Notes under the pieces: generated by a model | Database searches by the model: none | Told to the model about the DNA's origin: nothing | Seen by the model: the letters and a program-made list of their open reading frames with translations, nothing else | Translations under genes and position numbers: made by a program | NCBI GenBank assembly: GCA_934130405.1 | Contig: CAKOXX010000001.1 | Location: forward strand, 11,566 to 75,565 | Direction of reading: 5' to 3' | DNA: 64,000 nucleotides | Source: an uncultured Bacilli bacterium | Lineage (GTDB): Bacteria > Bacillota_I > Bacilli_A > RF39 > UBA660 | Shown here: positions 41,878-64,000 of the stretch, in pieces | Layout of the letters: the number at the start of each line of letters is the position of its first letter | Position numbering within the stretch: the stretch's first letter is position 1

Positions 41878-42108
41878 AAAACGAAAAAGACTCTAAATCC
41901 CAGTAAAGGGACGAGTCTTTTACCCGCGGTACCACCCAATTTATTATCGGTTAGATAATCGCTTATCTTGTTAACGGGAACTACCCGGCTTAGTCTACTT
42001 TGTTCTTTAAGCACTCCGAAGTGTTATTCGTAAATACTTTATCTTAACTGTTTTCACCAACCACAGCTTCTCTTATAAGTAAAGTATTCCTACTCGTCTT
42101 CATCAACG
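41878..42108 (-). promoter_or_regulatory. T-box riboswitch leader, probable Asn (AAC) specifier
   Basis: On the minus strand: Stem I with GA/K-turn (TGATGA), AGTA, AGAGA and GGTGAAA elements. Specifier loop is ...CGAAT-AAC-A-CTTCGG (codon at 42025..42023). T-box sequence AATTGGGTGGTACCGCGGG lies at 41942..41924. Terminator is AAAGACTC...GAGTCTTTTTCGTTTTC. Confidence 0.85.
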
Positions 42109-42223
42109 TTTTCTAATAAATTTTACAATGATATTTTATAATTTGTCAATTATTTATATAAATTTTTTGAAAAATTTATTATTTTAGTTTTTACAATTTG
42201 TAGCTAATTATACATGTCATATG

Positions 42224-43580: not shown

Positions 43581-44756
43581 TCAAGAAATATCAATTACAT
43601 CATAATAACTAGTCTTACCAGTATAGTTTACATCACTAATAGGAGTTTTAACTCCACTTTCACTATATTCTATATAATCAATTAAATGCTTATCACACCA
43701 CTCTTTACTTGGTTCATTACCTTCTCCAAACATTAAAGTTAAATCTATAATCATATAATCTTTAAAAGTAAACTCTGCCCAATCATATGATTCTATGTAA
43801 AAATGGTCATTTTCACTATTAGAAACGACAATTCCAGTATATATTCCTGTTGCATTAGGACTATAAATGAATTGAGTTTTTGGCCAATATTCTATTCCGT
43901 CTATTACTGTTTTGTGTGCAAATTCAAGTATTTTTTCCAAATTATGTCCCAACTTTTCAACTATAGATAATATATTAACATTATAATAATAATTGTGCCC
44001 AACACTTTTCATACTAGAAGCTGTCATCGCTATAGAATTACCCAAATAAGTAAGTCCATCAGTTGATAAAGTATAAGAGTCATCAGAATTCACTATTAAT
44101 TTTGCATATGTGCCTTTCCTAACAACTGCTATATTATTTTTTAATACATAATATTTTCTACATTCTCCATCTACGTAATAATTTCCTCCTGCATCTTGAC
44201 ACTTTTTATTTAAACTTTCTTCATTAGTTGATGCTCCTTCTATTCTAAGTTTTGCTTTAAAGACTTTATTTTCTTCTTCAGCTGTCATATCGCTTGAAAA
44301 CCATAATCTTAATTTATAGTTAATAGTTTGTCCACTATTAATTATTCCACTTTCTAGTTTTTGATTTCCTGTTAATGACTTAGCAACATTATTAGAACTA
44401 TCTCTTTCCAAACTATAATGAACATATTTCTGATCAATTCTAACATCACCTTCATCTAGTGGTTGATTATCTAAATAGATTGTATATGATGATGCTACTT
44501 TACCATTATTAGTTAATTTAAATGAATAGTAATTATTTAAATTAACACCTTCACTATCTGATAATGGTCCATCTGCTGATACTGTTATCGCATTACCATC
44601 TGATTCATCTAATACAAGTGATAAACTTCCAACTTTCAGAACACTATCTTTAGTTGCAAAGAAACTAGTTTGCAAAAATGCATATGATATTCCTAAAATA
44701 ATAAATATCAATATTACTAATAATATAACTAAAAATATATTTTGTCCCTTTTTCAT
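43581..44756 (-). CDS. SipW/TasA-type signal, TasA-like N-domain protein with a unique C-terminal domain (391 aa)
   Basis: N-terminus KKGQNIFLVILLVILIFIILGISYAFLQTS...VLKVGSLSLVLDES...FKLTNNGKVAS resembles the TasA/CalY signal plus first beta-strands (GGTWAAFND...GTLDLS...FENNGSL). Confidence 0.6.
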   Translation of the reverse strand: MKKGQNIFLVILLVILIFIILGISYAFLQTSFFATKDSVLKVGSLSLVLDESDGNAITVSADGPLSDSEGVNLNNYYSFKLTNNGKVASSYTIYLDNQPLDEGDVRIDQKYVHYSLERDSSNNVAKSLTGNQKLESGIINSGQTINYKLRLWFSSDMTAEEENKVFKAKLRIEGASTNEESLNKKCQDAGGNYYVDGECRKYYVLKNNIAVVRKGTYAKLIVNSDDSYTLSTDGLTYLGNSIAMTASSMKSVGHNYYYNVNILSIVEKLGHNLEKILEFAHKTVIDGIEYWPKTQFIYSPNATGIYTGIVVSNSENDHFYIESYDWAEFTFKDYMIIDLTLMFGEGNEPSKEWCDKHLIDYIEYSESGVKTPISDVNYTGKTSYYDVIDIS

Positions 44757-44787: not shown

Positions 44788-44819
44788 AAAAAAACAGAAT
44801 AAGCTTTTTCCTATTCCAT
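44788..44819 (-). terminator. Leader terminator-like hairpin 1
   Basis: Minus strand ATGGAATAGG-aaaaag-CTTATTCTGT (with G-U pairs) followed by T7, about 30 nt upstream of the gene start. Confidence 0.5.
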
Positions 44820-44850
44820 TACTTTTACACTATTAAAGAAAGCAGGTTTA

Positions 44851-44940
44851 TTACTTAATAAGTACCCCCCCCCAAGTTAATTTTAAGTTAACTTTTCTAG
44901 ACTTAAAAAGTGAGCAACTATTTTTAAAACAACTTTTCAT
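44851..44940 (-). CDS. Leader uORF 1 (29 aa) containing the G9 tract
   Basis: AGGTGA lies 6 nt before the ATG at 44940. Translation: MKSCFKNSCSLFKSRKVNLKLTWGGVLIK*. Confidence 0.5.
   Translation of the reverse strand: MKSCFKNSCSLFKSRKVNLKLTWGGVLIK
44865..44873 (-). repeat. Homopolymeric tract, C9 on plus strand (G9 in the transcript)
   Basis: Counted directly: agta-ccccccccc-aagtt. Confidence 0.95.
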
Positions 44941-45014
44941 AATTACTCACCTACTTTCTTTACTTTTATAGTTTATCACAGTTATTTTTGTATCTCAATA
45001 TATTTATTGAAATA

Positions 45015-46652
45015 CTATCCAATGGTAACAGTTCCTTTTCCTCCCAACTTATCTTCTAACCAAGCTTTAGTAGTTGCATCCTTAGTAATAATATTTATAT
45101 CTGATGCTACTAACGTAAATGTATTATCATAATTTGAAACAGATGTAAATACAGCTTTTCTTAAATCCAACCTTTTCAAACTTTTACACCAATTAAAAGT
45201 ATGAAACATATCAGTTACATTTTCTGTATTAAAACTACTAAGATTTAATTCTTGCAGATTAATATTAAAAGCAAACATATCACTCATTGTAGTAACTTTA
45301 CTTGTATCAAAACTACTTAAATCTAATTCAGTTAAAGAACCATAACTAGAAGTACCAAGATTTGTATCCCACATATTAAACATTGATGACATATCTGTTA
45401 CTTTTGATGTATCAAAACTAGATAAATTGATTGAGAACAATTTTTTACAATTACAAAACATCCCACCCATATTAGTTACATTACTAGTATTAAAATTACT
45501 CAAGTCTAGTGTTGTTAAATTCTTATCTCCGTTAAACATATGAAACATATCTGTTACTTTTGAAGTATTAAGATTGTCAATATTTAATGTCTGTAAACTC
45601 GTATTGTATGCAAACATATCTCGCATTATTGTCACGTTTGAGGTATCAAAACTACTTAAGTCTAATAAAGTTAAGCTACCAGTACTAGCAGCATCATCCG
45701 TTTTATTCCACATATTAAACATTCCATACATATTTGTAACTTTAGACGTATCAAAGTTACTTAAATCGATATTTAATAAACTTTTACAATTACTAAACAT
45801 TTGTGACATATCTGTAACCTGCGAGGTATTTAACAAAGTTAAATTTTCTATTGTTTTTAGTTCAGTAAAATAGTTAAATAGGTAACTAGAATTACTATTA
45901 GCAAATATTTCACCATTACTTTGGATATATAAAGTATTGGTACTATCATCGTTAGATACTATTTTACCAATAACACTATTATTATCATTTGCTGATAAGT
46001 CATAACTCTTAGTAGTGTTTTCTATATCATTTATTTTATCTTGAAATACTATCTTAGTAACTGTTTGTTTTTCTTCATCGATAAGTTTAAGAGATGATGC
46101 CATAGTATTAATATTTTGGCTAGCTTCTATTCTAAGTTTTGCTTTAAATACTTTATTTTCTTCTTCAGCTGTCATATCACTTGAAAACCATAATCTTAGT
46201 TTATAGTTGATAGTTTGTTTACTATTTATTATTCCACTTTCTAGTTTTTGCTCTCCAGTTAAAGACTTAGCAACATTATTAGAATCATCTCTTTCTAAAC
46301 TATAATGGACATATTCTTGGTCAATTCTGACATCACCTTCATCTAATGGTTGATTATCTAAATAGATTGTATATGATGATGCTACTTTTCCATTATTAGT
46401 TAATTTAAATGAATAGTAATCATTTAAATTAACACCTTCACTATCTGACAATGGTCCATCTGCTGATACTGTTATCGCATTACCATCTGACTCATCTAAT
46501 ACAAGTGCTAAACTACCTACTTTTAAAACATTATCATTACTTGCAAAGAAACTTGTTTGTAAAAATGCATATGATATTCCTAGAATAATAAATATCAAGA
46601 TTATAAGTAATATAATTAAAAATATATTTTGTTTATTAATCTTAGATTTCAT
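45015..46652 (-). CDS. TasA-like N-domain fused to BspA-type (DUF285) leucine-rich repeats (545 aa)
   Basis: The N-terminal ~180 aa are nearly identical to the 391-aa protein. The C-terminal part repeats LDLSxFDTSxVTxMxxMFxxCxxL, the DUF285/BspA LRR pattern. Confidence 0.7.
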   Translation of the reverse strand: MKSKINKQNIFLIILLIILIFIILGISYAFLQTSFFASNDNVLKVGSLALVLDESDGNAITVSADGPLSDSEGVNLNDYYSFKLTNNGKVASSYTIYLDNQPLDEGDVRIDQEYVHYSLERDDSNNVAKSLTGEQKLESGIINSKQTINYKLRLWFSSDMTAEEENKVFKAKLRIEASQNINTMASSLKLIDEEKQTVTKIVFQDKINDIENTTKSYDLSANDNNSVIGKIVSNDDSTNTLYIQSNGEIFANSNSSYLFNYFTELKTIENLTLLNTSQVTDMSQMFSNCKSLLNIDLSNFDTSKVTNMYGMFNMWNKTDDAASTGSLTLLDLSSFDTSNVTIMRDMFAYNTSLQTLNIDNLNTSKVTDMFHMFNGDKNLTTLDLSNFNTSNVTNMGGMFCNCKKLFSINLSSFDTSKVTDMSSMFNMWDTNLGTSSYGSLTELDLSSFDTSKVTTMSDMFAFNINLQELNLSSFNTENVTDMFHTFNWCKSLKRLDLRKAVFTSVSNYDNTFTLVASDINIITKDATTKAWLEDKLGGKGTVTIG

Positions 46653-46684: not shown

Positions 46685-48544
46685 TTATATCGCAAATGGA
46701 TTTAGAGCAGTTCCATCTCCCTTAATTATTTGAATATCTGCACGAAGACTTATAACTGGACGAACACTGTAGAGATTTGAGACATAACCCCAAGGATTCA
46801 GACTGCCCGAAGGAAGCACTCTCCAAACTTGTGCAACAGAGCTGTAAGACTCAAAGTTAGCCGGAGAGAGTGTCCAAAAATATTGTCCATTATATAGATA
46901 ATAATTACTGTTTGCTGTGTTATATATTCCGCCGGCCATTCCTACTTCATCTGCTGTAATAAGTGAAATTGGATAATCTAATTTAGCACTTTCATTTGAC
47001 ACTTTAAATTTATCATTATCTTGTGCACATTTTAAACTTGGTGCTTTCTTTTCATATAAACGTTCATATGTTCCATAAGTAGTAGTTGGTGGCGTTAAAT
47101 AACCATTACCCCAATTTATACTTCGATCATTACAGAATGTTTCATCTGCTAAATATGATGTATAACTTGTTAAATTGTTTTTATACCATGTATCTAGTGT
47201 ATTCTTCATTGTATTGTTTGTATTATTTGTTACTGCATCGGCATAACTATCACTGCTATAAGAAATTGGTTGGACTATCATTGTTGTATCATTTGAATAT
47301 CCTGTGATTTTATATACTACATTACAACTTGTATTTAAACAACTATATAGTTTTCCTGATACAATTTCATCCGAATTATCTTTCCAAGTTAATTGTTTGG
47401 TAGTTCCGGTTAATGTGAATTTTTTTGTTGTTTCATCAAAAGTGTATCCTGTTCCAAAGTTATATTTTGAGGTATTAGCAAACCAATTGTAACCTGTTGT
47501 TCCATTATTTTCATGTAGAGAAAACTTTTCATTATATTTATATCCGACATAAGTTGGATCCCAATATTTTTCATTAAACACTGAATTACCTATGTTTGTA
47601 GCAGTTCCTGTATCTGACGTTGTTTTTCCTGAATAAATCATTCTGATACTTCCATCTCCATTACGACGGATAATTCTCCAAGTATATCCTGCAAATGATA
47701 CATAGTTATTTTTCACTGCTCCTCTATAATAGTAGCTGTCTCCCTCATCATCCTCTGCCATGAATAAACCCTCATCGGTAGTAGCAGTTTTAGAAAAGTC
47801 TGGGGTTCCTTTGGCATTTATATTAGTCTTGGCACTTTCTACTGATATTTCATGATTGTTCATTACTAACATACAATCTGATAAAGTATTAAATCCATTA
47901 TCTTTGCAATAGGTATCTTCTACTTCTGCTACGGTATCTGAGGTTTGTCCGTAAACATTTACTTTTACTTTATATACTAATCCACCGTTATCACTTTGTG
48001 GATTATAACTTTCATCTACCCATAGTCTTAATCGATATTTGATTTCTGTATCTCCTTGTTGATTTAAATTTCCTACAAATAAACTCATCATATCTGATGG
48101 GCGACCAGTATAAACATTTCCAGTTGGGTCTTCTGAATAAGTTTTTGGTGGCATTGCTTCTTCTTCAGTACCATCGGAATTAACTTTCGTAAGATATAGT
48201 TTGATATTCTTTCCATCAAAGGTGTTTCCATTCTCTTCTTTCACTGCTATCTCATAGTTAATATCTGTATTCCCTGCTATTGATGATTTAATGGTAAAAT
48301 CAAAATATTCTCCAGAATTAAGTCTTTTCTTTCCAGTCGTATCGGTCGTCGGAAGAGCATTACTCATAGATATAATATTAGTACTTTCTGTATAATTCAT
48401 CGTTATTGCTCCAGTAGTTATGGTATTCAACTTTTGACCTATTCCTGAATAGTTAAATGCTGCATAACTGATACCAATAACAGCAATTAGTAAGATAAAA
48501 GTTGTTCCGATAGTTAATATATTTTTAAACTTTTGTTTATTCAT
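46685..48544 (-). CDS. SipW/TasA-type signal surface protein (619 aa)
   Basis: GISYAAFNYSG...ITTGAITMNY closely resembles TasA GGTWAAFND...ASGTLDLS. The C-terminal end ...VRPVISLRADIQIIKGDGTALNPFAI is shared with the 503- and 495-aa paralogs. Confidence 0.65.
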   Translation of the reverse strand: MNKQKFKNILTIGTTFILLIAVIGISYAAFNYSGIGQKLNTITTGAITMNYTESTNIISMSNALPTTDTTGKKRLNSGEYFDFTIKSSIAGNTDINYEIAVKEENGNTFDGKNIKLYLTKVNSDGTEEEAMPPKTYSEDPTGNVYTGRPSDMMSLFVGNLNQQGDTEIKYRLRLWVDESYNPQSDNGGLVYKVKVNVYGQTSDTVAEVEDTYCKDNGFNTLSDCMLVMNNHEISVESAKTNINAKGTPDFSKTATTDEGLFMAEDDEGDSYYYRGAVKNNYVSFAGYTWRIIRRNGDGSIRMIYSGKTTSDTGTATNIGNSVFNEKYWDPTYVGYKYNEKFSLHENNGTTGYNWFANTSKYNFGTGYTFDETTKKFTLTGTTKQLTWKDNSDEIVSGKLYSCLNTSCNVVYKITGYSNDTTMIVQPISYSSDSYADAVTNNTNNTMKNTLDTWYKNNLTSYTSYLADETFCNDRSINWGNGYLTPPTTTYGTYERLYEKKAPSLKCAQDNDKFKVSNESAKLDYPISLITADEVGMAGGIYNTANSNYYLYNGQYFWTLSPANFESYSSVAQVWRVLPSGSLNPWGYVSNLYSVRPVISLRADIQIIKGDGTALNPFAI

Positions 48545-48575: not shown

Positions 48576-48618
48576 AAAAAAGATAGATTTATATTATCAG
48601 TGATATTAATCTATCTTT
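48576..48618 (-). terminator. Leader terminator-like hairpin 2
   Basis: Minus strand AAAGATAGATT-(18-nt loop)-AATCTATCTTT followed by TTTTGTG. Confidence 0.5.
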
Positions 48619-48654
48619 ATTCCACGATAAAAGAAAGTAAGTCTTTTTCTTAAA

Positions 48655-48711
48655 TTAGTAAGTACCCCCCCCCCACGTTAATTTCTGGTTAACTTGAGTC
48701 AATCGATACAT
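48655..48711 (-). CDS. Leader uORF 2 (18 aa) containing the G10 tract
   Basis: AGGTGA lies 5 nt before the ATG at 48711. Translation: MYRLTQVNQKLTWGGGTY*. Confidence 0.5.
   Translation of the reverse strand: MYRLTQVNQKLTWGGGTY
48665..48674 (-). repeat. Homopolymeric tract, C10 on plus strand (G10 in the transcript)
   Basis: Counted directly: agta-cccccccccc-acgtt. Confidence 0.95.
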
Positions 48712-48794
48712 ACTAATCACCTACTTCCTATTTTTTATTATCAGTATTCTTGACATCTTAATAATATCATAATCTTTGAAATTTTACAATTAAT

Positions 48795-51236: not shown

Positions 51237-51974
51237 CTATTCATCCTTCTTTCCTTTAAGTAAGCCTAAGAGAAGATGTTTTTTCTCTCTAGACATTTTT
51301 TCTAAATACTTGCCATTATCAAATTTGATAATATCTTTTTTAAAATCAACTGATGTTACTCTATCTAGATTAATTATACAATTTCTATATACTTGAAAAA
51401 ATCTATTATCTAACTGTTCTTTTATCTGAATTAAACTAAGCGGAACAGTATATTCGCCGTGAGAGGCATAAACCGTTGATGTTTTACTATCAGGGTCTCT
51501 TATGATGTAATAAATATGTTTAAGTTCAATTCTTGAGTAAACACGGTTCCGTTGATAAGTTAAACATCTATCCTTTCCACGATAACTTTTTAATACTATG
51601 TCTAAAACTTCATCCATCTTTTTAGTGCAACTATCGAGCTTATTAATAAAGTCTAAAACAAATAAGCGATTAGTAATTATTTCATAGCGATATTCACTAA
51701 AAGACGAAACTATTATGATGATAGAATTCCAATCTTCAATCATTTCTCTTATAAATCTAGCAGCATCTATTCCTGAACCATAGTTAGTTTTGATATCTAG
51801 AAAGTAGACTTTAAAGCCAATTTCTTTACCTGCTAATTTTTCAAAATCTTGATTATATCCCGCAAAAGTGTAAATCTTATACTCCATATCAGTTCTCATC
51901 ATATAGTTATCAATTTGATTTTTCATTCCTTGTCTAAAAAACTGATCATCATCACATATAATAAAATTTAACAT
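51237..51974 (-). CDS. LytTR-family response regulator (no adjacent histidine kinase)
   Basis: Receiver domain (ICDDD...FLDI) plus a C-terminal LytTR domain (...IYYIIRD...FFQVYRNCIINLDRV). Confidence 0.8.
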   Translation of the reverse strand: MLNFIICDDDQFFRQGMKNQIDNYMMRTDMEYKIYTFAGYNQDFEKLAGKEIGFKVYFLDIKTNYGSGIDAARFIREMIEDWNSIIIIVSSFSEYRYEIITNRLFVLDFINKLDSCTKKMDEVLDIVLKSYRGKDRCLTYQRNRVYSRIELKHIYYIIRDPDSKTSTVYASHGEYTVPLSLIQIKEQLDNRFFQVYRNCIINLDRVTSVDFKKDIIKFDNGKYLEKMSREKKHLLLGLLKGKKDE

Positions 51975-52043: not shown

Positions 52044-53219
52044 TTATTTATATAAAATATCTAAATCTGTTAAGTTATTTATTCCATCTACTACTCCTCT
52101 ATCAGTCTTCTGCCAGATATTATATTCCTTCTGATAAGTAGTATTATTAGTATAATGTGCTAACCAAACAGGATAAGTATTATTAGTAAAAACATTTTCT
52201 AAATAGTATTTACTACCATAAAGCATTCCTTGATAACCTTCTTTCTCTACTGTTTCTAAGAAAGTATCAGCTATTTCTCCTAAATGGTAAAATGATAAGT
52301 TAAATTCTTGATAGAAAGAGAAGTTTTCCCAGTCAAAGACGATTGGCAGTTTAATGTCATAACCTTTAAGTTCTTTTAAAACCCAAAGAGCTTCCTTCTT
52401 CGCATCTTTTTTATCTTTAGCATAAGAATAGAAGTAAACGCCGGTCTTAATTCCTACTTTATTAAAGCCTTCAATATTTTCTTTAAACTTAGGGTCTAAG
52501 ACAAAGTCTTTATCAATTCCTTTTCTAGTACCAATTCTAATAAAAACGAACTCAACTCCAGCTTCTTTAACTTTTTCATAATCAATATCTTGTTGCCATT
52601 TAGAAACATCTATCCCAATTAAGGTATTAGCAGTTTTATTTTCTTGATAAAAATCTTTAAAAGCTATTTTTTCTTTCTCGCTACTAGGCACTTGGTAATC
52701 TTTCTTTTCTCTTACAGAGATGGTAAAGTCCTTTCTAGTAACATTTCCACTAGAATCAAGGGCTTCGTAAACTAACGGATAATCACCAACCGTATTAAAG
52801 TCATAATTACCAACTACTTGACAAGTCGGTTTATCATCATAGTTATCACCACAAAATACTTCTTTAGCAAAGTCTTCATCAGAACCTAAATCAACATAGT
52901 ATAAACTACTAAGGGAAATGACAGGAGGAATATCATCTACTACTTCATAAGTAAAAGTATAACTAGCAAGACGATTATCATCATTTTTATAAGTAAGAGT
53001 ATACTCATTCTTTCCGACCTTCTTGGTATTTAACTTTTCATTTTTATAAGTACCATTAATTGATTTAATAATATCATCTAGACTAGTATCACTATAAACT
53101 TGAAAAGTTAAGTCATCTGTTAAACTGACACTTACTGTTACTTCTCTTGTATTTAAATAGATAATACTTGCTATTAATAAACTAATAACTAGAAAGATAG
53201 CTAGTAAAGATTTTTTCAT
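52044..53219 (-). CDS. Membrane-anchored GH25 muramidase (lysozyme)
   Basis: N-terminal TM segment. GIDVSKWQQDIDYEKVKEAGVEFVFIRIG is typical of GH25. The start overlaps the mutS stop (ATGA). Confidence 0.8.
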   Translation of the reverse strand: MKKSLLAIFLVISLLIASIIYLNTREVTVSVSLTDDLTFQVYSDTSLDDIIKSINGTYKNEKLNTKKVGKNEYTLTYKNDDNRLASYTFTYEVVDDIPPVISLSSLYYVDLGSDEDFAKEVFCGDNYDDKPTCQVVGNYDFNTVGDYPLVYEALDSSGNVTRKDFTISVREKKDYQVPSSEKEKIAFKDFYQENKTANTLIGIDVSKWQQDIDYEKVKEAGVEFVFIRIGTRKGIDKDFVLDPKFKENIEGFNKVGIKTGVYFYSYAKDKKDAKKEALWVLKELKGYDIKLPIVFDWENFSFYQEFNLSFYHLGEIADTFLETVEKEGYQGMLYGSKYYLENVFTNNTYPVWLAHYTNNTTYQKEYNIWQKTDRGVVDGINNLTDLDILYK

Positions 53220-55777
53220 TCGTCTTTCTTCATCTCCTCTTTCAAACGATATAAAAAGTTTAAAGCGTCCATTGGACTCATTTCTAAAGGGTTAATTTCT
53301 TTAATTTTCTCAAGATACTTATTTTCTTTTTCTTCTTGCTCTTCTACTTCTTGGTCAAACAAGCTAGTCTGTGTATAAATAGTTTCTCTTTTTTCTTGAT
53401 TTTCATACACATTTAAGATTTCTTCTGCTCTTTTAATTAAAGATTTAGGTAAATCAGCTAAACTAGCAACATTAATACCATAACTCTTATCAACAGAACC
53501 ATTTTTAATCTTATGAAGAAATGTTAGTTTTCCATCTTCTTCGACAGCTGAAACGTGAACATTCTTTAGATGAGCTAAACTACTTGCAAGTTCTGTTAAT
53601 TCGTGATAGTGCGTAGAAAATAAAGTCTTAGCACCAATATTATCATGAATATATTCTAATATCGCTTGTGCCAAACTCATTCCATCATAAGTAGCAGTAC
53701 CACGACCTAACTCATCAAATAAAATTAAACTATTCTTAGTTGCACGTGATATCGCTAAGTTAGCTTCTTTCATTTCCACCATAAAGGTACTTTCACCACT
53801 AACTAAATCATCACTTGCTCCTATTCTTGTAAATATCTTATCAAAAACAGGAATAGTACAACTCTTAGCTGGTACAAAAGAACCTATCTGGGCCATAATA
53901 ACAGTAATAGCAAGTTGACGCATATAAGTAGATTTACCAGCCATATTTGGTCCAGTAATAAGTAAAATAGACGTATCTTTATCCATTATTATATCATTAG
54001 CAACATACTTTTCATTCTTCTTAGCCATTACTTCTTCTACTACCGGATGACGACTTTCAATTATCTTTACTTCATTCTTATCATTTAAGACTGGTTTTAC
54101 AAAGTGATAATTATCTGCTACAAAAGAAAGTGCTGATAACATATCAATCTCTGCTAGAATATTAGCACATTTCTGTAACGGTAAAATATATCTTTTAACA
54201 ACTTCTCTAATTTGCATAAACAGTTGATATTCTAAGTTAATTATCTTCTCTTCTGCTCCTAGAATAATACTTTCTTTTTCTTTTAATTCCTTAGTAGTAA
54301 ATCTTTCACAATTAGATAGAGTCTGTCTTCTATCATACCCAAACTCTTCTTTTACTAAATCACATTGTCCTTTACTAATTTCAATATAATAACCAAAGAC
54401 TTTGTTATAACCAACCTTTAAGTTCTTAATACCAGTTCTTTCTTTTTCTTTCTGTTCTAGTTCTAATAAGAAGTCTTTACTACCACTTGATAAGTCTCTT
54501 AACTCATCTAGTTCTTCATTATAACCTTTCTTGATTAAGTTTCCTTCTTTTAGAGAAATCGGTGGTTCTTCATTCAAACTATTATCAAATAAAGATACTA
54601 AATCATCAAAAGTTTCTATTTTTTTATCATATTTTATTTCTTCTAGTATTTTCTTAATAGTAGGTAGAGCTTTCAAACTAGAATTTAATTGTAATAAGTC
54701 TCTCGCATTTAAGTTACCATAACAAACTCTGCCGATAAGTCTTTCAATGTCATAGACTTGATTTAAGCTTTTCTTTAAGTCATCTCTTAAGATAAACTCC
54801 GTTTGTAATACTTCGATATAATGATAACGACGTTCTAGTTCTTTTCTATCTATTAAAGGAAACTCTAAGTTCTTTCTAAGTAATCTACTTCCCATTGCTG
54901 TTTGATTTTTATCAAGTAACCATAACAAACTATAAGTCTTTTCTCTAAGTCTAAGTGTTTCTGTTAACTCAAGATTACGTTTAGTATGTTCATCTAGTAA
55001 TAAATGTGCATTAATTAGTTCCACTTTTGCAGCTTGTAAATGCGATAAATCACCTTTTTTAGTATTAACAGTATAAGCAAGTAAGTGTTTAATTCCTCTT
55101 TCTTTTCGTAAGTCATTTAGCTCTTTATAAATATAACTATACTGTTCATCATCATTATAATCATTATAAATCGTAACATTTAACTGATAAGTCTTACGAA
55201 GAGTATTAATAAAGTTACGGTCAATTTCATCACTGACAATTATCTCCTCAAAACCATGACGAATAATCTCTTGTAATAATTCTTGTAAACTATCATCTAG
55301 AATTGTGACATAAACTTCTCCCGTAGAAATATCAGCATAACTTAATGCATACGAGTTGGCGGTATAAGTAACCGATGCTAAAAAGTTATTCTTAGTGTCA
55401 TCAATCGAACCATCTAGTCTTGTTCCACTAGTAACGATTTGAATTACTTCCCTCTTAACCATTTCTTTAGTAAGTTTAGGGTCTTCAACTTGCTCAACGA
55501 TTGCTACTTTATATCCCATTTCTACTAATTTATCTAAATATGCTTCATAAGCTTTAAAAGGAATACCACACATTGGTACTTTTTCTTCTAAACCAGCTTG
55601 CTTCCCTGTTAAAGTTAATTCTAATATCTTAGATGCCACAATAGCATCATCAAAGAACATTTCATAAAAGTCTCCTAAGCGAAAAAAAATAATCGCATCT
55701 GGATTTTCGTCTTTTATCTTCATCCACTGTAACATAACAGGGCTTAATTTAGTTCTATCTACTTCGTTTCTTAACAT
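53216..55777 (-). CDS. mutS: DNA mismatch repair protein MutS
   Basis: TPVMLQW-like N-terminus (SPVMLQWMKIK), Walker A TGPNMAGKST, and STFMVEM. Confidence 0.95.
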   Translation of the reverse strand: MLRNEVDRTKLSPVMLQWMKIKDENPDAIIFFRLGDFYEMFFDDAIVASKILELTLTGKQAGLEEKVPMCGIPFKAYEAYLDKLVEMGYKVAIVEQVEDPKLTKEMVKREVIQIVTSGTRLDGSIDDTKNNFLASVTYTANSYALSYADISTGEVYVTILDDSLQELLQEIIRHGFEEIIVSDEIDRNFINTLRKTYQLNVTIYNDYNDDEQYSYIYKELNDLRKERGIKHLLAYTVNTKKGDLSHLQAAKVELINAHLLLDEHTKRNLELTETLRLREKTYSLLWLLDKNQTAMGSRLLRKNLEFPLIDRKELERRYHYIEVLQTEFILRDDLKKSLNQVYDIERLIGRVCYGNLNARDLLQLNSSLKALPTIKKILEEIKYDKKIETFDDLVSLFDNSLNEEPPISLKEGNLIKKGYNEELDELRDLSSGSKDFLLELEQKEKERTGIKNLKVGYNKVFGYYIEISKGQCDLVKEEFGYDRRQTLSNCERFTTKELKEKESIILGAEEKIINLEYQLFMQIREVVKRYILPLQKCANILAEIDMLSALSFVADNYHFVKPVLNDKNEVKIIESRHPVVEEVMAKKNEKYVANDIIMDKDTSILLITGPNMAGKSTYMRQLAITVIMAQIGSFVPAKSCTIPVFDKIFTRIGASDDLVSGESTFMVEMKEANLAISRATKNSLILFDELGRGTATYDGMSLAQAILEYIHDNIGAKTLFSTHYHELTELASSLAHLKNVHVSAVEEDGKLTFLHKIKNGSVDKSYGINVASLADLPKSLIKRAEEILNVYENQEKRETIYTQTSLFDQEVEEQEEKENKYLEKIKEINPLEMSPMDALNFLYRLKEEMKKDE

Positions 55778-57111: not shown

Positions 57112-58623
57112 TTATTCTGCTAAAATGAATGGATCAGTTGATGAACCTGTTCCAGAGGTTATATTTATTGTTGACTTTAGATAGACGACTGGACGTTCCT
57201 CAAGAGCAGCATAGGCATAAGTATTGTGAACAGCTCCATAAGCATAAACATCGAAAACATAAGCAGAATCAGTAGCAAACGAGCTCATTGTCCATTGTAT
57301 TTTTGATGATTTATAAAGCCAGTCATTATCTCTACAATTAATATAGCTACTATCATCCCAACTATATAATTCTACTGTCATACAACTCATTCTATTTGTA
57401 CTACTTCCGCCACTTGTTGCATATCCATAGTCACTTGGGTACATTAATCCTACTTTTCCTATCCAATTGGTACTGCGTCCACTATACACTGCTGTTCCTC
57501 TTTCATTTTTATAAAAATCTGATGTTGATAATCCATTTGTTGAACTAAAATAATCTGCAGGACTACCTAGATACCACTTTGCATCTCCTATCATTAGTTT
57601 TGCTGTATCTGTTAGACCAGTAGAAGTAAAATTACATGATGTTGTACCATTATATTGTCCATAGTAACAGGTCCCACTCTTTCTATTCCAATATAAACTA
57701 CCTCCATAAGTTTCACTTTCATGTCCTGGATTTAGTAAATAGTTTAGTCTTGCTTCTGGCCAGCTATTCTTTCCCCAATGATTTTCTGCTCCAGTTGATA
57801 AATCTTTATTATCCCATGAGTAAGCCCCTATTGATTCATTTCTTATTATCTTTAGTCTCTTTTCTTTTTTTCCTGTTCCATCATCGACATCAAATACTCC
57901 GATTATTCGCCATAATTCATCACTAAATTTAACATAATTATTTGGATTTGCTCCGATATAGCGATAATCAGTGGTTACTTCTAACTGTTCAGTTTCTTCA
58001 TGGGAAAATGTCCACATTTGATTTTTTTGATCATCCGTTGCTGTATTATAGTCTAAATCTTCTGGATTAGCATTTGCTACCAAAGTTTCTGTTGCTGGTG
58101 GATTACTTAATAATAAGAATACTGTTGTTCCACTTGGTAATGTTAAGTTAGAATTATTTAAGCCCATTGAGAAACCTATTTTAATTTGCTTGCCAGTTGC
58201 TCCCTTAATTTTTATCTTATAAGTTAATGTCTTTCCAGCTTCTACTGATACTCCTTCAACCGTTGGAATAGTTGGGCTATCAGATGTATAACCTATCTCA
58301 ATTGAACTATCTGATAGATTGTAGTAATAGATTGAATTTTTTACTGTTCTATCGCTTGTATTAGTTACTGTTAAAGTAATAGTATCATTATCTGTTGATG
58401 GTGTATAAGTAATTACGCCAGTTCCATTAATTGTTACGGAGTTACTTCCTATCGCTACTGTTCCATTTAAAGTACCTGTTACTACGCTATATTGCTGTAC
58501 TCCTTGAACAGTAAACCACGCATAAGAAAAGTATCCCATCAGCATTAAGCCACTTACTCCAAATAAAATAAACATATAACTTGTTGATATTTTTGTATCC
58601 AATAATTTCTTAAATATTTTCAT
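57112..58623 (-). CDS. SipW/TasA-type signal surface protein (503 aa)
   Basis: N-terminus ...LMLMGYFSYAWFTVQG...VVTGTLNGTV. C-terminus ERPVVYLKSTINITSGTGSSTDPFILAE. Paralog of the 495-aa and 619-aa proteins. Confidence 0.65.
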   Translation of the reverse strand: MKIFKKLLDTKISTSYMFILFGVSGLMLMGYFSYAWFTVQGVQQYSVVTGTLNGTVAIGSNSVTINGTGVITYTPSTDNDTITLTVTNTSDRTVKNSIYYYNLSDSSIEIGYTSDSPTIPTVEGVSVEAGKTLTYKIKIKGATGKQIKIGFSMGLNNSNLTLPSGTTVFLLLSNPPATETLVANANPEDLDYNTATDDQKNQMWTFSHEETEQLEVTTDYRYIGANPNNYVKFSDELWRIIGVFDVDDGTGKKEKRLKIIRNESIGAYSWDNKDLSTGAENHWGKNSWPEARLNYLLNPGHESETYGGSLYWNRKSGTCYYGQYNGTTSCNFTSTGLTDTAKLMIGDAKWYLGSPADYFSSTNGLSTSDFYKNERGTAVYSGRSTNWIGKVGLMYPSDYGYATSGGSSTNRMSCMTVELYSWDDSSYINCRDNDWLYKSSKIQWTMSSFATDSAYVFDVYAYGAVHNTYAYAALEERPVVYLKSTINITSGTGSSTDPFILAE

Positions 58624-58644
58624 AAACTACCTCTTTCTACGCAC

Positions 58645-58677
58645 AAAAAACAGAATAAGATTAGATTCCTATCCTGT
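58645..58677 (-). terminator. Leader terminator-like hairpin 3
   Basis: Minus strand ACAGGATAGG-aatctaat-CTTATTCTGT (two G-U pairs) followed by TTTTTTGTG. Confidence 0.5.
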
Positions 58678-58714
58678 TTTTTTTACACTATTAAAGAAAG
58701 TAGTTTTCTCTACC

Positions 58715-58777
58715 TTATATAAGTACCCCCCCCCAAGTTAATTTCTGGTTAACTTGAGTTCCTAAGATATTTATCAT
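58715..58777 (-). CDS. Leader uORF 3 (20 aa) containing the G9 tract
   Basis: ATG at 58777. Translation: MINILGTQVNQKLTWGGVLI*. Confidence 0.5.
   Translation of the reverse strand: MINILGTQVNQKLTWGGVLI
58726..58734 (-). repeat. Homopolymeric tract, C9 on plus strand (G9 in the transcript)
   Basis: Counted directly: aagta-ccccccccc-aagtt. Confidence 0.95.
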
Positions 58778-58860
58778 ATTACCATCTACTTTCTTTTTAT
58801 TGTTCACTTAAATTTTATCATTTTTTTATCATCTATACAATATGTTTATTTTCTAAATTA

Positions 58861-60348
58861 TTATTCATCAGATAAAACATAAGGATTTGATTTTTCACCT
58901 GTTCCTGATGCTATTTTCACAGAAGATTTCAAATAAACTGTTGGTCTTGCAGTATGATTACTATAGCTATTAGCTGTACTAAGATAACTTTGTTGTACAC
59001 GAAATGTAGAATAAGAAATATCTGATCTAGAATTTATAGTCCATTGCATAGCTGATGATTTATAAAGCCAGTCATTATTATAACAATCAGAATAGTTATT
59101 CCAACTGGCAAGCGAAGTTTGTAAACATGTATTTCTATTAGTTGTACTTCCTCCACTTGTGGCATAACCATAATCAGAAGGATAAATTAGTCCTACTTTT
59201 CCTATCCAAGATGTATCTCTTCCACTAAATACAGTATTTCCCCTTTCATAAGAGTAAAAATTTGAGACTAGTCCTGTTGCACTTGTTGTCCCTCCCAAAT
59301 ACCACTTTGCATTATCTATAGCAGCCTTTGCTTCCATCGTTAAACCAGTAGATGTAAAATCACATGATGAAGTTGAATTACCACTTCCCTTGTAACAATT
59401 TCCACTCTTTCTATTCCAATATAAGCTTCCACCATAACTTTCACTTTCGTGTCCTTCATTCAATAAATAATTAAGTCTTGCATCAGTCCAGTTATTTTTA
59501 CCATTTGCACTTTCTGCACCAGTTGATGTATTCTTATTGTCCCAACTATAACTTCCGATAGCATTGTTTCTTATTATTTTTATTCTCTTTTCTACTTTAC
59601 CGGTTCCATCATCAACATCAAATACCCCAATTATTCGCCATACCTCATCATTAAATGTTACATAATTATTAGGACTGCTTCCTATATATCTATAATCAGT
59701 TAATGCCTCTGTTTGGTCTGTTTTATCATGAGAAAATTTCCACATTTGATTCTTTTGATCATCGGTTGCTGTATTGTAATCCAAATCTTCTTTATTAGCA
59801 TTTGTTATTAAGTTTTCCACTCCAGTTGGTTCTAACTTTTCAAAAGCATTGGTTCCAACTGGTAATGTCAAATTGGAATTATTTAAGCCCATTGATGAGC
59901 CTATTTTTATTTGTTTACCAGTTGCTCCTGTTATCTTTATATAGTAGGTTAGTATACCTCCTTTTTCTACTGATACTCCAGTAACTTCAGGAATAGTTGG
60001 ACTATCTACAGTATAACCAATTTTAATTGAGCTATCTGATAAATCATAGTAACAAATAGAGTTTTTTGCTGTTCTATCATTTGTGTTAGTTACTGTTAAA
60101 GTAATAGTGTCACTATCTGTCGATGGTGTATAAGTAATTACGCCAGTTCCATTAATTGTTACGGAGTTACTTCCTATCGCTACTGTTCCATTTAAAGTAC
60201 CTGTTACTACGCTATATTGCTGTACTCCTTGAACAGTAAACCACGCATAAGAAAAGTATCCCATCAGCATTAAGCCACTTACTCCAAATAAAATAAACAT
60301 ATAACTTGTTGATACTTTTGTATCAAATAACTTTCTAAATATTTTCAT
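58861..60348 (-). CDS. SipW/TasA-type signal surface protein (495 aa)
   Basis: Paralog of the 503-aa protein. Shares a 193-nt perfectly identical 5' segment (60122..60314 vs 58397..58589). Confidence 0.65.
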   Translation of the reverse strand: MKIFRKLFDTKVSTSYMFILFGVSGLMLMGYFSYAWFTVQGVQQYSVVTGTLNGTVAIGSNSVTINGTGVITYTPSTDSDTITLTVTNTNDRTAKNSICYYDLSDSSIKIGYTVDSPTIPEVTGVSVEKGGILTYYIKITGATGKQIKIGSSMGLNNSNLTLPVGTNAFEKLEPTGVENLITNANKEDLDYNTATDDQKNQMWKFSHDKTDQTEALTDYRYIGSSPNNYVTFNDEVWRIIGVFDVDDGTGKVEKRIKIIRNNAIGSYSWDNKNTSTGAESANGKNNWTDARLNYLLNEGHESESYGGSLYWNRKSGNCYKGSGNSTSSCDFTSTGLTMEAKAAIDNAKWYLGGTTSATGLVSNFYSYERGNTVFSGRDTSWIGKVGLIYPSDYGYATSGGSTTNRNTCLQTSLASWNNYSDCYNNDWLYKSSAMQWTINSRSDISYSTFRVQQSYLSTANSYSNHTARPTVYLKSSVKIASGTGEKSNPYVLSDE

Positions 60349-60369: not shown

Positions 60370-60402
60370 AAAAAACAGAATAAGATTAAATTCCTATCCT
60401 GT
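60370..60402 (-). terminator. Leader terminator-like hairpin 4
   Basis: Minus strand ACAGGATAGG-aatttaat-CTTATTCTGT followed by TTTTTTGTG. Confidence 0.5.
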
Positions 60403-60437
60403 TTTTTACACTATTAAAGAAAGTAGTTTTTTCTACC

Positions 60438-60500
60438 TTATATAAGTACCCCCCCCCAGGTTAATTTCTGGTTAACTTGAGCTTCTAAGATATTCATCAT
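60438..60500 (-). CDS. Leader uORF 4 (20 aa) containing the G9 tract
   Basis: GAGGG lies 4-7 nt before ATGATG at 60500. Translation: MMNILEAQVNQKLTWGGVLI*. Confidence 0.5.
   Translation of the reverse strand: MMNILEAQVNQKLTWGGVLI
60449..60457 (-). repeat. Homopolymeric tract, C9 on plus strand (G9 in the transcript)
   Basis: Counted directly: aagta-ccccccccc-aggtt. Confidence 0.95.
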
Positions 60501-60559
60501 ATTACCCTCTACTTTCTTTTTATTGTTCACCTAAATTTTACCAAATATCATATAAATAT

Positions 60560-60913
60560 TCAACAATATTTATTTTCTATAATATATGCTATTTCCCTTC
60601 CATTTCTGCCAATCTCAATACCGTTATTCTTCTGAATTATTCTTTGCATTTTAATATTATCAAATGAAACTGAACATATAACTGATTTATTAACTTTGGA
60701 TAATAGCAATTTAAATACAGCACTTCCATATCCCTTATTTTGATATTTTTGAGCAATAATTATAAATAGTTCATCTCTTACTTTTTTACGTATAATTGCA
60801 TAACCAATTTTAATATTGCTTAAATAACATTCATATAGTTGATCACCTTTTGATAATTCAAACTTTTGAATTAAATCATCAGTTATTTTAGTCACTTCAT
60901 TTAAACTTATCAT
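60560..60913 (-). CDS. GNAT-family N-acetyltransferase
   Basis: 117 aa with Q-x-x-G-x-G/A-like motif QNKGYGSAVFKLLL. Overlaps the upstream gene by 4 nt. Confidence 0.65.
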   Translation of the reverse strand: MISLNEVTKITDDLIQKFELSKGDQLYECYLSNIKIGYAIIRKKVRDELFIIIAQKYQNKGYGSAVFKLLLSKVNKSVICSVSFDNIKMQRIIQKNNGIEIGRNGREIAYIIENKYC

Positions 60914-63259: not shown

Positions 63260-64000
63260 TTAATTGTTGTTCTTAAATTTCTCTATGTGATTTTCTAATT
63301 TTCTTATCCTCTCTTGTAAACCATTAACTAACTTTTCAATTCGTTTATCAGACATATCCAATTTATCTTTATACTTTTCTAGTAAAGACTGATACTCATC
63401 GCAAAGTACATCTAAACGTTTAATATCTATATTAACTATATCTTTTCCAATTACTTTTAAAATATCTTCATAATTTTTATTAGTATTAGTAAAGAACTTT
63501 CCAGTACCATAAGAAAAGTTAATTTCATCAAGATATTTATCACATTCCATACTTTGACCAGTATCAAATATTGGAGTAGTTCTTACCCATTCTAATGTAT
63601 TAACATTTCTAATAACTCCAAAATTTTTCAAGTGTCTATCTGTATTAAGCATTAAATAATCTAAAATAAACATATCTTCCACATTCTTACGAGCATTTGG
63701 AACGTTATGCTTTTCTAATGTTTGGATATAAAATTCATAATCGTTTATGTTATTAGGTTTTTTCTCAGATTTAAAAACATCATAAGCAGAAATAATTTCT
63801 TCATCTGCACTAACAAAATTTTCACACTTAGAAATAAATTTCGTTTTATCAGTCCAGCGAACAAAATAATTACAATAGTTAAAACCTAATCTTTTACTTA
63901 TTTGAGAAGCAAGCCATTCATTAAAAGGTTCTTCTCTACTTGATGTATATGTTCCTTTTACTAAAATTCTTTTACCATTCTCAATAATCCAACCTTTTTG
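63260..64000 (-). CDS. HipA-like Ser/Thr kinase (5' end outside window)
   Basis: The minus-strand frame is open from 64000 down to the stop at 63260; I translated it by hand (QKGWIIENGKRILVKGTYTSSREEPFNEWLASQISKRLGF...LMLNTDRHLKNFGVIRN...). The ORF track shows only the part after an internal GTG at 63682. Confidence 0.65.
   Translation of the reverse strand, partial: QKGWIIENGKRILVKGTYTSSREEPFNEWLASQISKRLGFNYCNYFVRWTDKTKFISKCENFVSADEEIISAYDVFKSEKKPNNINDYEFYIQTLEKHNVPNARKNVEDMFILDYLMLNTDRHLKNFGVIRNVNTLEWVRTTPIFDTGQSMECDKYLDEINFSYGTGKFFTNTNKNYEDILKVIGKDIVNIDIKRLDVLCDEYQSLLEKYKDKLDMSDKRIEKLVNGLQERIRKLENHIEKFKNNN

Follow-up and report, generated by a model that had tools for sequence, protein, structure and literature searches.

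A length-variable G tract in short leader reading frames: a candidate phase-variable attenuator of surface-protein genes in an uncultured gut Bacilli bacterium

Leader-peptide switches and the four G-tract leaders

Phase variation in which the length of a leader open reading frame (ORF) governs a downstream terminator has previously been demonstrated experimentally only for two pilus loci of Streptococcus gallolyticus, pil1 and pil3. There, the number of GCAGA repeats sets how long the leader peptide is: OFF forms stop 39 bp (at least 28 nt) short of the terminator, ON forms within or after it, and in pil1 mutation of the leader ATG abolishes the effect and the operon is locked ON when the terminator is deleted (Danne et al. 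2014, PMC3894217). The present work concerns four leaders in a 64,000-nt stretch of DNA (the window) from an uncultured Bacilli bacterium, contig CAKOXX010000001.1. Each leader carries a short ORF that runs through a tract of nine or ten G's, upstream of a gene for a putative surface protein, and the four are called k44, k48, k58 and k60 after their positions in kilobases. The length of these tracts is polymorphic at the DNA level between closely related loci. It is likely that each locus is a phase-variable leader-ORF attenuator, in which the tract length sets the length of the leader ORF and thereby antitermination and the unmasking of the Shine-Dalgarno (SD) sequence of the gene.

The leaders share with pil1/pil3 a simple-sequence repeat inside a leader-peptide ORF, a predicted intrinsic terminator between this ORF and the genes for surface structures, a presumed OFF frame ending tens of nucleotides before the hairpin (25-40 nt here) and an ON frame ending within or after it, a repeat number that differs between isolates, and a Gram-positive gut commensal as host. 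The repeat, by contrast, is a G9/G10 homopolymer here and 13-22 GCAGA units there; a single register out of three is long, where pil1 has two long ones, both out of frame; an extra block mimicking the 3' end of 16S rRNA, hence anti-SD, is able to pair with both SD sequences; and at least 15 loci occur in one metagenome-assembled genome (MAG), against two. The cargo is an uncharacterised family with a transmembrane (TM) anchor here and sortase pili there, and the system described here is known from sequence alone. There is no sequence similarity between the two systems. Given that the window holds 0 GCAGA repeats, and that the cargo proteins gave no pilin or LPXTG matches in Pfam, the leaders are an analogue of pil1 and not a homologue. 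The logic of pil1 and pil3 seems to have an independent origin here, based on the simplest repeat possible, and no description of a homopolymer version of such a switch was found in the literature searched. What is new relative to pil1/pil3 is thus the repeat type, the single long register, the predicted anti-SD lock, the copy number and the putative surface cargo.

A ribosome that translates a leader peptide into or next to an attenuator hairpin prevents termination in the pyrBI and trp attenuators of Escherichia coli. The signal there is physiological (supply of nucleoside triphosphates or of charged tRNA), whereas here it would be the genotype, i.e., the reading frame. The polyG/C contingency genes of Campylobacter jejuni, Neisseria and Haemophilus resemble the present loci in their G/C tracts of 8-11 with a mode of 9, in their length polymorphism, in the many loci per small AT-rich genome and in the targeting of surface structures; their tracts, however, lie within the regulated gene, which is truncated, or in a promoter spacer (PMC3401435). 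Here, the tract lies in a separate upstream ORF that is proposed to act via termination and SD access, and the protein itself is never frameshifted. Invertible-DNA switches, such as cwpV and flgB in Clostridioides difficile and fim in E. coli, likewise gate termination before a surface operon by a stochastic, heritable change in the 5' leader, yet they do so by site-specific recombination, with no leader translation and in some cases via Rho (PMC12360218), whereas the change proposed here is replication slippage read by a ribosome. Standard scans for contingency genes, which consider tracts in genes or in promoter spacers, would miss loci of this kind or call them intergenic.

Architecture, registers and conservation of the leaders

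The window has a G+C content of 29% and contains exactly four G runs of eight or more, all on the minus strand:

44865-44873 (-), k44 G tract, G9
48665-48674 (-), k48 G tract, G10
58726-58734 (-), k58 G tract, G9, read as codons TGG GGG GGG G..
60449-60457 (-), k60 G tract, G9

Counting overlapping matches, G8 is found nine times, against 0.06 expected from shuffles. The four tracts are also the sole G/C runs of six or more in the window, and the longest A/T runs measure 8.

The four leaders align with a common order of blocks: a promoter; block A (AAAGAAAGTAGGTG), which is the SD sequence of the leader ORF; an ATG-initiated leader ORF with a variable N-terminal part; GTT AAC nnn AAA TTA ACn TGG, which encodes V N x K L T W; the G tract; TACTTA; the pyrimidine block D (CTACTTTCTTT); an AU-rich hairpin with T6-7; an extended SD, block E; and the ATG of the gene. 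The tract lies about 100-130 nt from this structural ATG. Block D is likened to the 3' end of 16S rRNA, whose tail we take to be that general to Bacilli, there being no 16S gene in the window. At k58 the features are as follows:

58812..58840 (-), promoter, a consensus match only: -35 TTGTAT at 58840..58835, 17-nt spacer and extended -10 TGaTAAAAT, with the -10 at 58817..58812
58783..58798 (-), SD of the leader ORF (block A), AAAAAGAAAGTAGATG, an extended SD
58715..58777 (-), leader ORF with G9 as sequenced, MINILGTQVNQKLTWGGVLI followed by a stop
58735..58753 (-), conserved block GTTAACnnnAAATTAACnT, which codes for VN-x-KLT-W and abuts the 5' end of the tract
58693..58704 (-), anti-SD block D, ACTACTTTCTTT, the 16S 3'-end mimic, complementary to the leader SD and to the main-gene SD
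58645..58676 (-), predicted leader terminator, with hairpin core 58676..58651 and T run 58650..58645; its 5' arm holds the long-register stop
58639..58627 (-), main-gene SD, TAGAAAGAGGTAG
57112..58623 (-), gene for a 503-aa surface or secreted protein, ATG at 58623

The three remaining loci have the same layout:

60370..60563 (-), k60 leader, with promoter 60563..60535 and leader ORF 60500..60438 (MMNILEAQVNQKLTWGGVLI, then a stop)
(-), k60 leader, downstream half: block D 60427..60416, hairpin 60401..60376, T run 60375..60370
60348..58861 (-), k60 gene, 495 aa
48576..48789 (-), k48 leader, with promoter 48789..48761 and leader ORF 48711..48655 (MYRLTQVNQKLTWGGGTY, then a stop)
(-), k48 leader, downstream half: block D 48641..48630, hairpin 48618..48579, T run 48581..48576
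48544..46685 (-), k48 gene, 619 aa
44788..44998 (-), k44 leader, with promoter 44998..44970 and leader ORF 44940..44851 (MKSCFKNSCSLFKSRKVNLKLTWGGVLIK, then a stop)
(-), k44 leader, downstream half: block D 44846..44835, hairpin about 44820..44793, T run 44794..44788
44756..43581 (-), k44 gene, 391 aa

Every register was translated at each locus. An earlier note on this stretch had claimed that only one register enters the hairpin, and this is the case at each of the four loci, with its translations and stops reproduced to the base. For k58, k60 and k44 the long register is G8, and for k48 it is G9. At k58, a G8 tract yields MINILGTQVNQKLTWGGYLYKVEKTTFFNSVKKTG, which ends at TAG 58671..58669; the corresponding stops are TAA 60388..60386 for k60 (G8), TAG 44813..44811 for k44 (G8) and TAA 48608..48606 for k48 (G9). 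These stops fall in the 5' arm of the hairpin at k58, k44 and k48, and in its loop at k60. The two remaining registers stop 2-5 codons past the tract in the window loci (VLI, TYIR, VLIK, TY and YLLI, each followed by a stop). The sequenced states, G9, G9, G9 and G10, correspond to the long register plus one G at 4/4 window loci, as the note had stated. Its ON/OFF logic, by which a ribosome in the long register would cover the hairpin's left arm as well as the anti-SD block, also holds as far as sequence can show.

In the switch proposed here, a sigma-70-type promoter would give a leader RNA of about 190-240 nt, on which a strong extended SD would load ribosomes onto the short leader ORF with its hypermutable G9/G10 tract, and replication slippage would cause the tract to gain or lose one G. 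In two registers the ribosome would stop 2-9 codons past the tract, 25-40 nt short of the hairpin. Block D (CUACUUUCUUU as 16S 3'-end mimic) would then be available for pairing with the SD of the leader or of the main gene, and the hairpin and U-run would end transcription, leaving the gene OFF. In the long register the ribosome would cross block D and halt inside the hairpin, with its footprint blocking the hairpin and keeping D unpaired; RNA polymerase would read through, the main SD would be open, and the gene would be ON. The four window loci in the sequenced genome would all be in an OFF register. Given at least 15 copies heading genes for surface or secreted proteins in one related MAG (CAKPDM01), independent switching would give combinatorial surface variation. 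The compact architecture, i.e., switch, predicted anti-SD lock and terminator, makes the proposal testable, and could be reused as a synthetic stochastic switch.

The conservation of these parts was assessed on a wider family. A pattern scan over one genome per species gave a chance match (G5) in Rhodoferax and 23 copies from three uncultured 'Bacilli bacterium' MAGs, a single MAG accounting for 18. A metagenome scan gave 25 further loci, and look-ups of called proteins gave more distant copies (L052 and L053). The scan pattern required the conserved block upstream of the tract, whose apparent conservation is thus partly ascertainment; this block could form a small hairpin with the first G's of the tract. 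A fifth copy of the leader (L063:4115), seen on same-strain contigs, lies just past window position 64000, upstream of a 506-aa gene; it is G9 and long+1, with a HipA-like gene separating it from the k60 region. Since this copy is directly outside the window, the four copies in the window are a subset.

An ORF with SD and ATG in the TGG frame is present in 45/47 unique upstream regions, and in 0 in the two other frames. The N-terminal part of the leader ORF varies from 9 to 31 codons while the frame into the tract stays, all of ACT, ACC, ACG and ACA are used for the Thr before TGG, and Lys is AAA or AAG in distant copies. A frame kept despite a variable N-terminal part, with synonymous variation at Thr and Lys, is good evidence that the leader ORF is translated. 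Within block D, CTTTCTTT is invariant; its TTC TTT in the long frame is never synonymously exchanged, and the flanking first codon positions vary; hence, the block is constrained as nucleic acid and not as peptide.

A hairpin followed by a T5-8 run is found in 44/44 unique copies. The long-register stop lies inside this hairpin in all 44 (in the 5' arm in 31, in the loop in 9 and in the 3' arm in 4), across six different hairpin sequences, and the short-register stops precede the hairpin base by 25-40 nt. Hairpins were assessed by ViennaRNA folds and alignment covariation; the stems take in bases of the A and U runs. Families have different hairpin sequences, and 3/8 consensus pairs present compensatory changes (GC/AU 12:11, AU/UA 12:7). 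In comparison with shuffles, the hairpins of the four window leaders present z = -2.8 to -7.2, with k58 (z = -7.2) folding at -19.2 kcal/mol when flanking A/U pairs are included.

Block A is complementary to block D, with a mean duplex energy of about -13.5 kcal/mol. The minimum-energy partner of D is the leader SD in 3/4 window leaders and the main-gene SD in k48. When D was paired with its own and with permuted partners, 0/2000 permutations were as good for D:E and 5/2000 for A:D, with an own-partner effect of about 1 kcal/mol over few independent families. The pairing of D with the main SD is extended in a family-specific way, by GACUUA:UAAGUC for k48-type leaders and by CUAC:GUAG for k58-type ones. 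Covariation in the A:D helix, judged by eye, was rejected as support, given mostly G-U pairs or mismatches; complementarity is what this helix is based on.

These pairings could also be read as a translation-only switch, in which the hairpin would be a constitutive leaky terminator or stabiliser and the register would matter via D freeing the main-gene SD. The family-specific extensions, the own-partner pairing that no D:E permutation equals, and the k48 minimum-energy fold, which pairs D with the main SD, are in its favour. Control by D alone, however, has no need of a long-register stop inside the hairpin, which is found in every unique copy; a U-run lies directly 3' of every hairpin; and three of the four window folds pair D with the leader SD instead of the main SD. 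Hence, a switch acting on translation only is considered very unlikely.

A further alternative places the switch in transcription initiation, with the G tract as a promoter-spacer repeat of the Bordetella fim, Neisseria opc/porA or Mycoplasma vlp type, tuning the -35 and -10 of an internal promoter. The sequence TTAACT-16 nt-TATAAG does bracket the tract, but in k58 and k60 only; its -10-like hexamer is without the final T, and other families have TTAGTA or CTAATT. The promoter pattern TTGnnn-17-TGnTAnnnT is conserved 60-125 nt upstream in 4/4 window leaders, the k60 copy also being recovered by a consensus scan, and a transcript starting past the tract would still meet the terminator. The tract is almost certainly not a promoter spacer.

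Two other candidates were rejected. An amino-acid-sensing attenuator of the trp/his type does not fit cargo made up of surface proteins, and the minimum-energy folds present no alternative helix with the terminator arms. A known cis-regulatory RNA was also considered; no leader matches Rfam at the gathering score in a search of the whole window, and two leaders searched at E <=10 gave only noise.

One leader in the wider family (L012:1428) is a mosaic. It combines a promoter, SD and N-terminal leader ORF (MYQLTQ..) of the k48 type with a downstream half and cargo of the k44 type, as seen against window 48665-48760 and 44788-44865. The junction falls at the conserved block and G tract, which suggests that leaders have recombined at this core.

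Polymorphism of the tract and its interpretation

The 44 unique copies are distributed among tract lengths as G9 in 35, G10 in 7 and G8 in 2, and among registers as long in 8, +1 in 29 and +2 in 7. The earlier note had proposed as a rule that tracts sit exactly one G above the long register; this is specific to the window.

Tract length differs between orthologs. At the k48 locus, with flank identity of at least 95%, G8 (contig L028), G9 (L043) and G10 (window) are found. Further differing groups are L016 versus L026/L034 and L015 versus L044 at 95% flank identity or more, and L011 versus L027 and L033 versus the k58/k60 group at 90% or more; L033, a close relative of k60, is G10. Elsewhere, the k48 locus presents G9, its long register, in L051, L043, L057-L060 and L062, G10 in L061 and G8 in L028, and the k44 locus presents G8, its long register, in L050/P0002, G10 in L058 and G9 in L057, L059 and L060. 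In alignment with the window, L051 has one G fewer at k48 (G9, long) and few single-nucleotide polymorphisms, within the same transketolase-SirA neighbourhood, and L050 differs at k44 by one G (G8, long) and otherwise by few single-nucleotide polymorphisms. Even contigs that encode an identical 619-aa protein are divided, with G9 in five and G10 in one at k48, and G9 in three and G10 in one at k44. A/T runs of 7-8 nt on these contigs served as control, and their length differs in 1/76 comparisons, versus 8/16 for the G tracts. Orthologous loci with nearly identical flanks thus carry G8, G9 and G10.

Since gene callers would list the long-register leader ORF (as a 'hypothetical protein') solely for loci that are ON, public assemblies already record ON and OFF states. 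A profile built from 12 hypothetical long-register peptides was searched against the called ORFs of public assemblies and retrieved more than 60, including long forms matching G8, G9, G11 and G12. In families where both forms are callable, short-register (G9) forms are found on ~76 contigs and long forms on ~5, the OFF count being a lower bound; the k48-type family is mostly in the long register. Alleles from G8 to G12 recur across independent assemblies, including at 9-15x coverage. The ortholog polymorphism and the long-register alleles together support one of the two explanations given in the earlier note, namely slipped-strand phase variation with the four window loci OFF.

The second explanation was RNA-level recoding as the designed route. 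According to it, the modal G9, as long+1, would be the functional form, and +1 frameshifting or RNA polymerase slippage would reach the long frame; expression would then be graded instead of binary, and the G8 and G10 alleles would be mutational noise. The long+1 state at 4/4 window loci and in 29/44 unique copies agrees with this, as do k58, k60 and the fifth locus, which are invariably G9. GGG is a rare codon, as had been expected, with 5.8% of Gly codons, and frameshifting on G runs is documented, e.g., in the thymidine kinase of herpes simplex virus. The +1 site of prfB (RF2) consists of an SD-like G run, a 3-nt spacer, CUU and a slow stop codon in the A site, and GGGGG-GUA-CUU-A, which many G9 copies have, suggests a resemblance to it in the G9 type-1 leaders. 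Unlike prfB, however, the leaders appear to have neither a stop codon nor a slow codon in the A site, the codon there being a sense one (AUA or AUU); some families replace the CUU that follows the tract (with UUU in the L007 type and UUA in L052); and 5-6 G's would be enough for an SD-like stimulator, versus the 9-10 present. The register that would need the shift is not conserved either, differing among unique copies and between orthologs, and in the k48-type family G9 is already long, with no shift needed, yet the tract, TACTTA, block D and the terminator are all kept. Since the +1 state is not general across copies, the main argument for a programmed +1 frameshift or RNA polymerase slippage is removed, and recoding as the designed route is judged quite unlikely. 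RNA-level slippage may act as an added leak.

It is also possible, though unlikely, that the tract combines both functions, as a DNA contingency switch and an RNA-level recoding site, with three heritable settings per locus (high, leaky and tight) under a double lock. At the modal G9, the prfB-like GGGGG-GUA-CUU-A and/or RNA polymerase slippage would place a small, tunable fraction of ribosomes in the long frame. The double lock would consist of the terminator and of the 16S-mimic anti-SD block closing the leader SD or the gene SD, and the conserved VN-x-KLTW / GTTAAC..AAATTAAC block could serve as a stimulator or pause element.

A fixed G9 would imply that there is no switch at all: the tract would belong to a cis-regulatory RNA or an arrest-peptide leader (..KLTWGG..) responding to some signal, and the length differences would be assembly errors. 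G9 is strongly modal, the VN-x-KLTWGG and GTTAAC..AAATTAAC block is conserved with no other explanation, and the breaks of four contigs fall exactly on the tract, as could result from sequencing trouble. On the other side, the recurrence of G8-G12 alleles in independent assemblies, at up to 9-15x coverage, and the stability of other homopolymers in the same contigs argue against assembly errors, while the leaders match no Rfam family, the G run has no conserved pairing partner, and the downstream genes encode surface proteins instead of a pathway with an obvious ligand. The absence of a switch is therefore highly improbable.

Several points weigh against the leader-ORF attenuator as the preferred reading. 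We infer antitermination, SD unmasking and the assignment of ON and OFF from the stop geometry and from the S. gallolyticus pil1 precedent. Coupling between ribosome and RNA polymerase is reported to be loose in at least some Firmicutes, as in the 'runaway transcription' of B. subtilis. The leader hairpins are AU-rich, with core stems of -6 to -17 kcal/mol, and were missed by a simple terminator scan, and the strongly conserved GTTAACnnnAAATTAAC block is without a role in the switch model. The polymorphism was read from assembly consensus, partly at 2-15x coverage, and homopolymer errors could contribute to it. Switching is also not visible everywhere, given that all same-strain contigs sampled have G9 at k58, k60 and the fifth locus. 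Finally, G9 dominates (35/44 copies) whether it would mean ON, as in the k48 type, or OFF, which could also be compatible with a G9-specific function. For comparison, the proven phase-variable polyG tracts of C. jejuni also have a modal length of nine, attributed to a length-dependent bias between insertion and deletion (PMC3401435).

Some alleles depart from a plain change in length. In one k58 ortholog (L002/L063, equivalent of window 58734), TTTGGGGGGGG replaces TTGGGGGGGGG, giving T+G8; this G-to-T substitution changes Trp to Leu, and leaves total length and frame unchanged. Some public leader-ORF alleles (P0006, P0028 and P0040) read ..KLTGGG.. for ..KLTWGG.., with the T replaced or lost and the G run longer or shifted, and others have interrupted tracts (WGVC, WVG and WGD). 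Such alleles may be sequencing errors or 'locked' alleles. Four contigs (L009, L026:14289, L034:9553 and L038) have their ends exactly inside the G tract or immediately past it, as could arise from length heterogeneity within a sample or from sequencing trouble after polyG.

Cargo proteins and neighbouring genes

All 52 of the 52 downstream ORFs examined begin with a basic and hydrophobic signal-anchor N-terminus, followed by [GS]-x-[ST]-Y-A-[LAFW]-[LF]. The cargo falls into size classes of about 390, 410, 500 and 600 aa which look unrelated, yet have this N-terminal module in common (GISYAAF, FSYAWF, GVSYALL). The common signal-anchor N-terminus points to surface proteins, and the module looks like a dedicated signal-peptide or processing motif; in a search of the cargo N-termini against NCBIfam, no SipW-type, pilin or other signal-peptide model matched.

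When the four cargo proteins of the window were searched against Pfam and NCBIfam, the only hit was a sub-threshold one to the Ig-like Peptidase_C25_C (21 bits versus a cutoff of 25). The 503-aa k58 protein has an N-terminal TM helix, after which comes the FSYAWF motif. It has more than 7,700 homologous 90% clusters in metagenomes, none with a Pfam domain, and the few that are named are called 'hypothetical protein'; a PDB sequence profile search gave 0 matches. Its AlphaFold2 model (pLDDT 56) had a sole Foldseek match, the IgA peptidase 9qa6 of Thomasclavelia ramosa (E 4e-5, TM 0.32), which was too weak and was left unused as evidence, though it offers a lead to what this gut protein family does. 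The leaders thus head a very large, fast-diverging and unannotated family of putative surface proteins.

A gene for a surface protein with PARCEL/DUF285 repeats, 45015-46652 (-), lies 32 nt after the k48 cargo gene and is without a leader of its own. It is probably co-transcribed with the k48 cargo, and the two would switch together.

A full-length MutS gene (domains I-V) lies at 53216-55777 (-), followed directly by a GH25 lysozyme-like gene at 52044-53219 (-). In Firmicutes, mutL usually follows mutS. The presence of MutL, and so of intact mismatch repair, bears on the instability of the homopolymers.

An orphan response regulator of the LytTR type is encoded between the leader loci, at 51237-51974 (-), and no kinase gene adjoins it. 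The AAGTTAAC..AAATTAAC block of the leaders is loosely similar to a LytTR half-site. A LytTR box has a period of roughly 21 nt, and the reading of this block as such a box was rejected, given its period of 11 nt and its location in the transcribed leader.

The host is known from MAGs alone and comes from the human gut, and one contig with family members measures 1.55 Mb; the proposed switch would offer a handle on antigenic variation in this uncultured human-gut lineage. Elsewhere in the window, a T-box leader (Rfam RF00230, 135.9 bits) at 41904-42115 (-) lies upstream of a gatC-gatA-gatB-aspS-like cluster.

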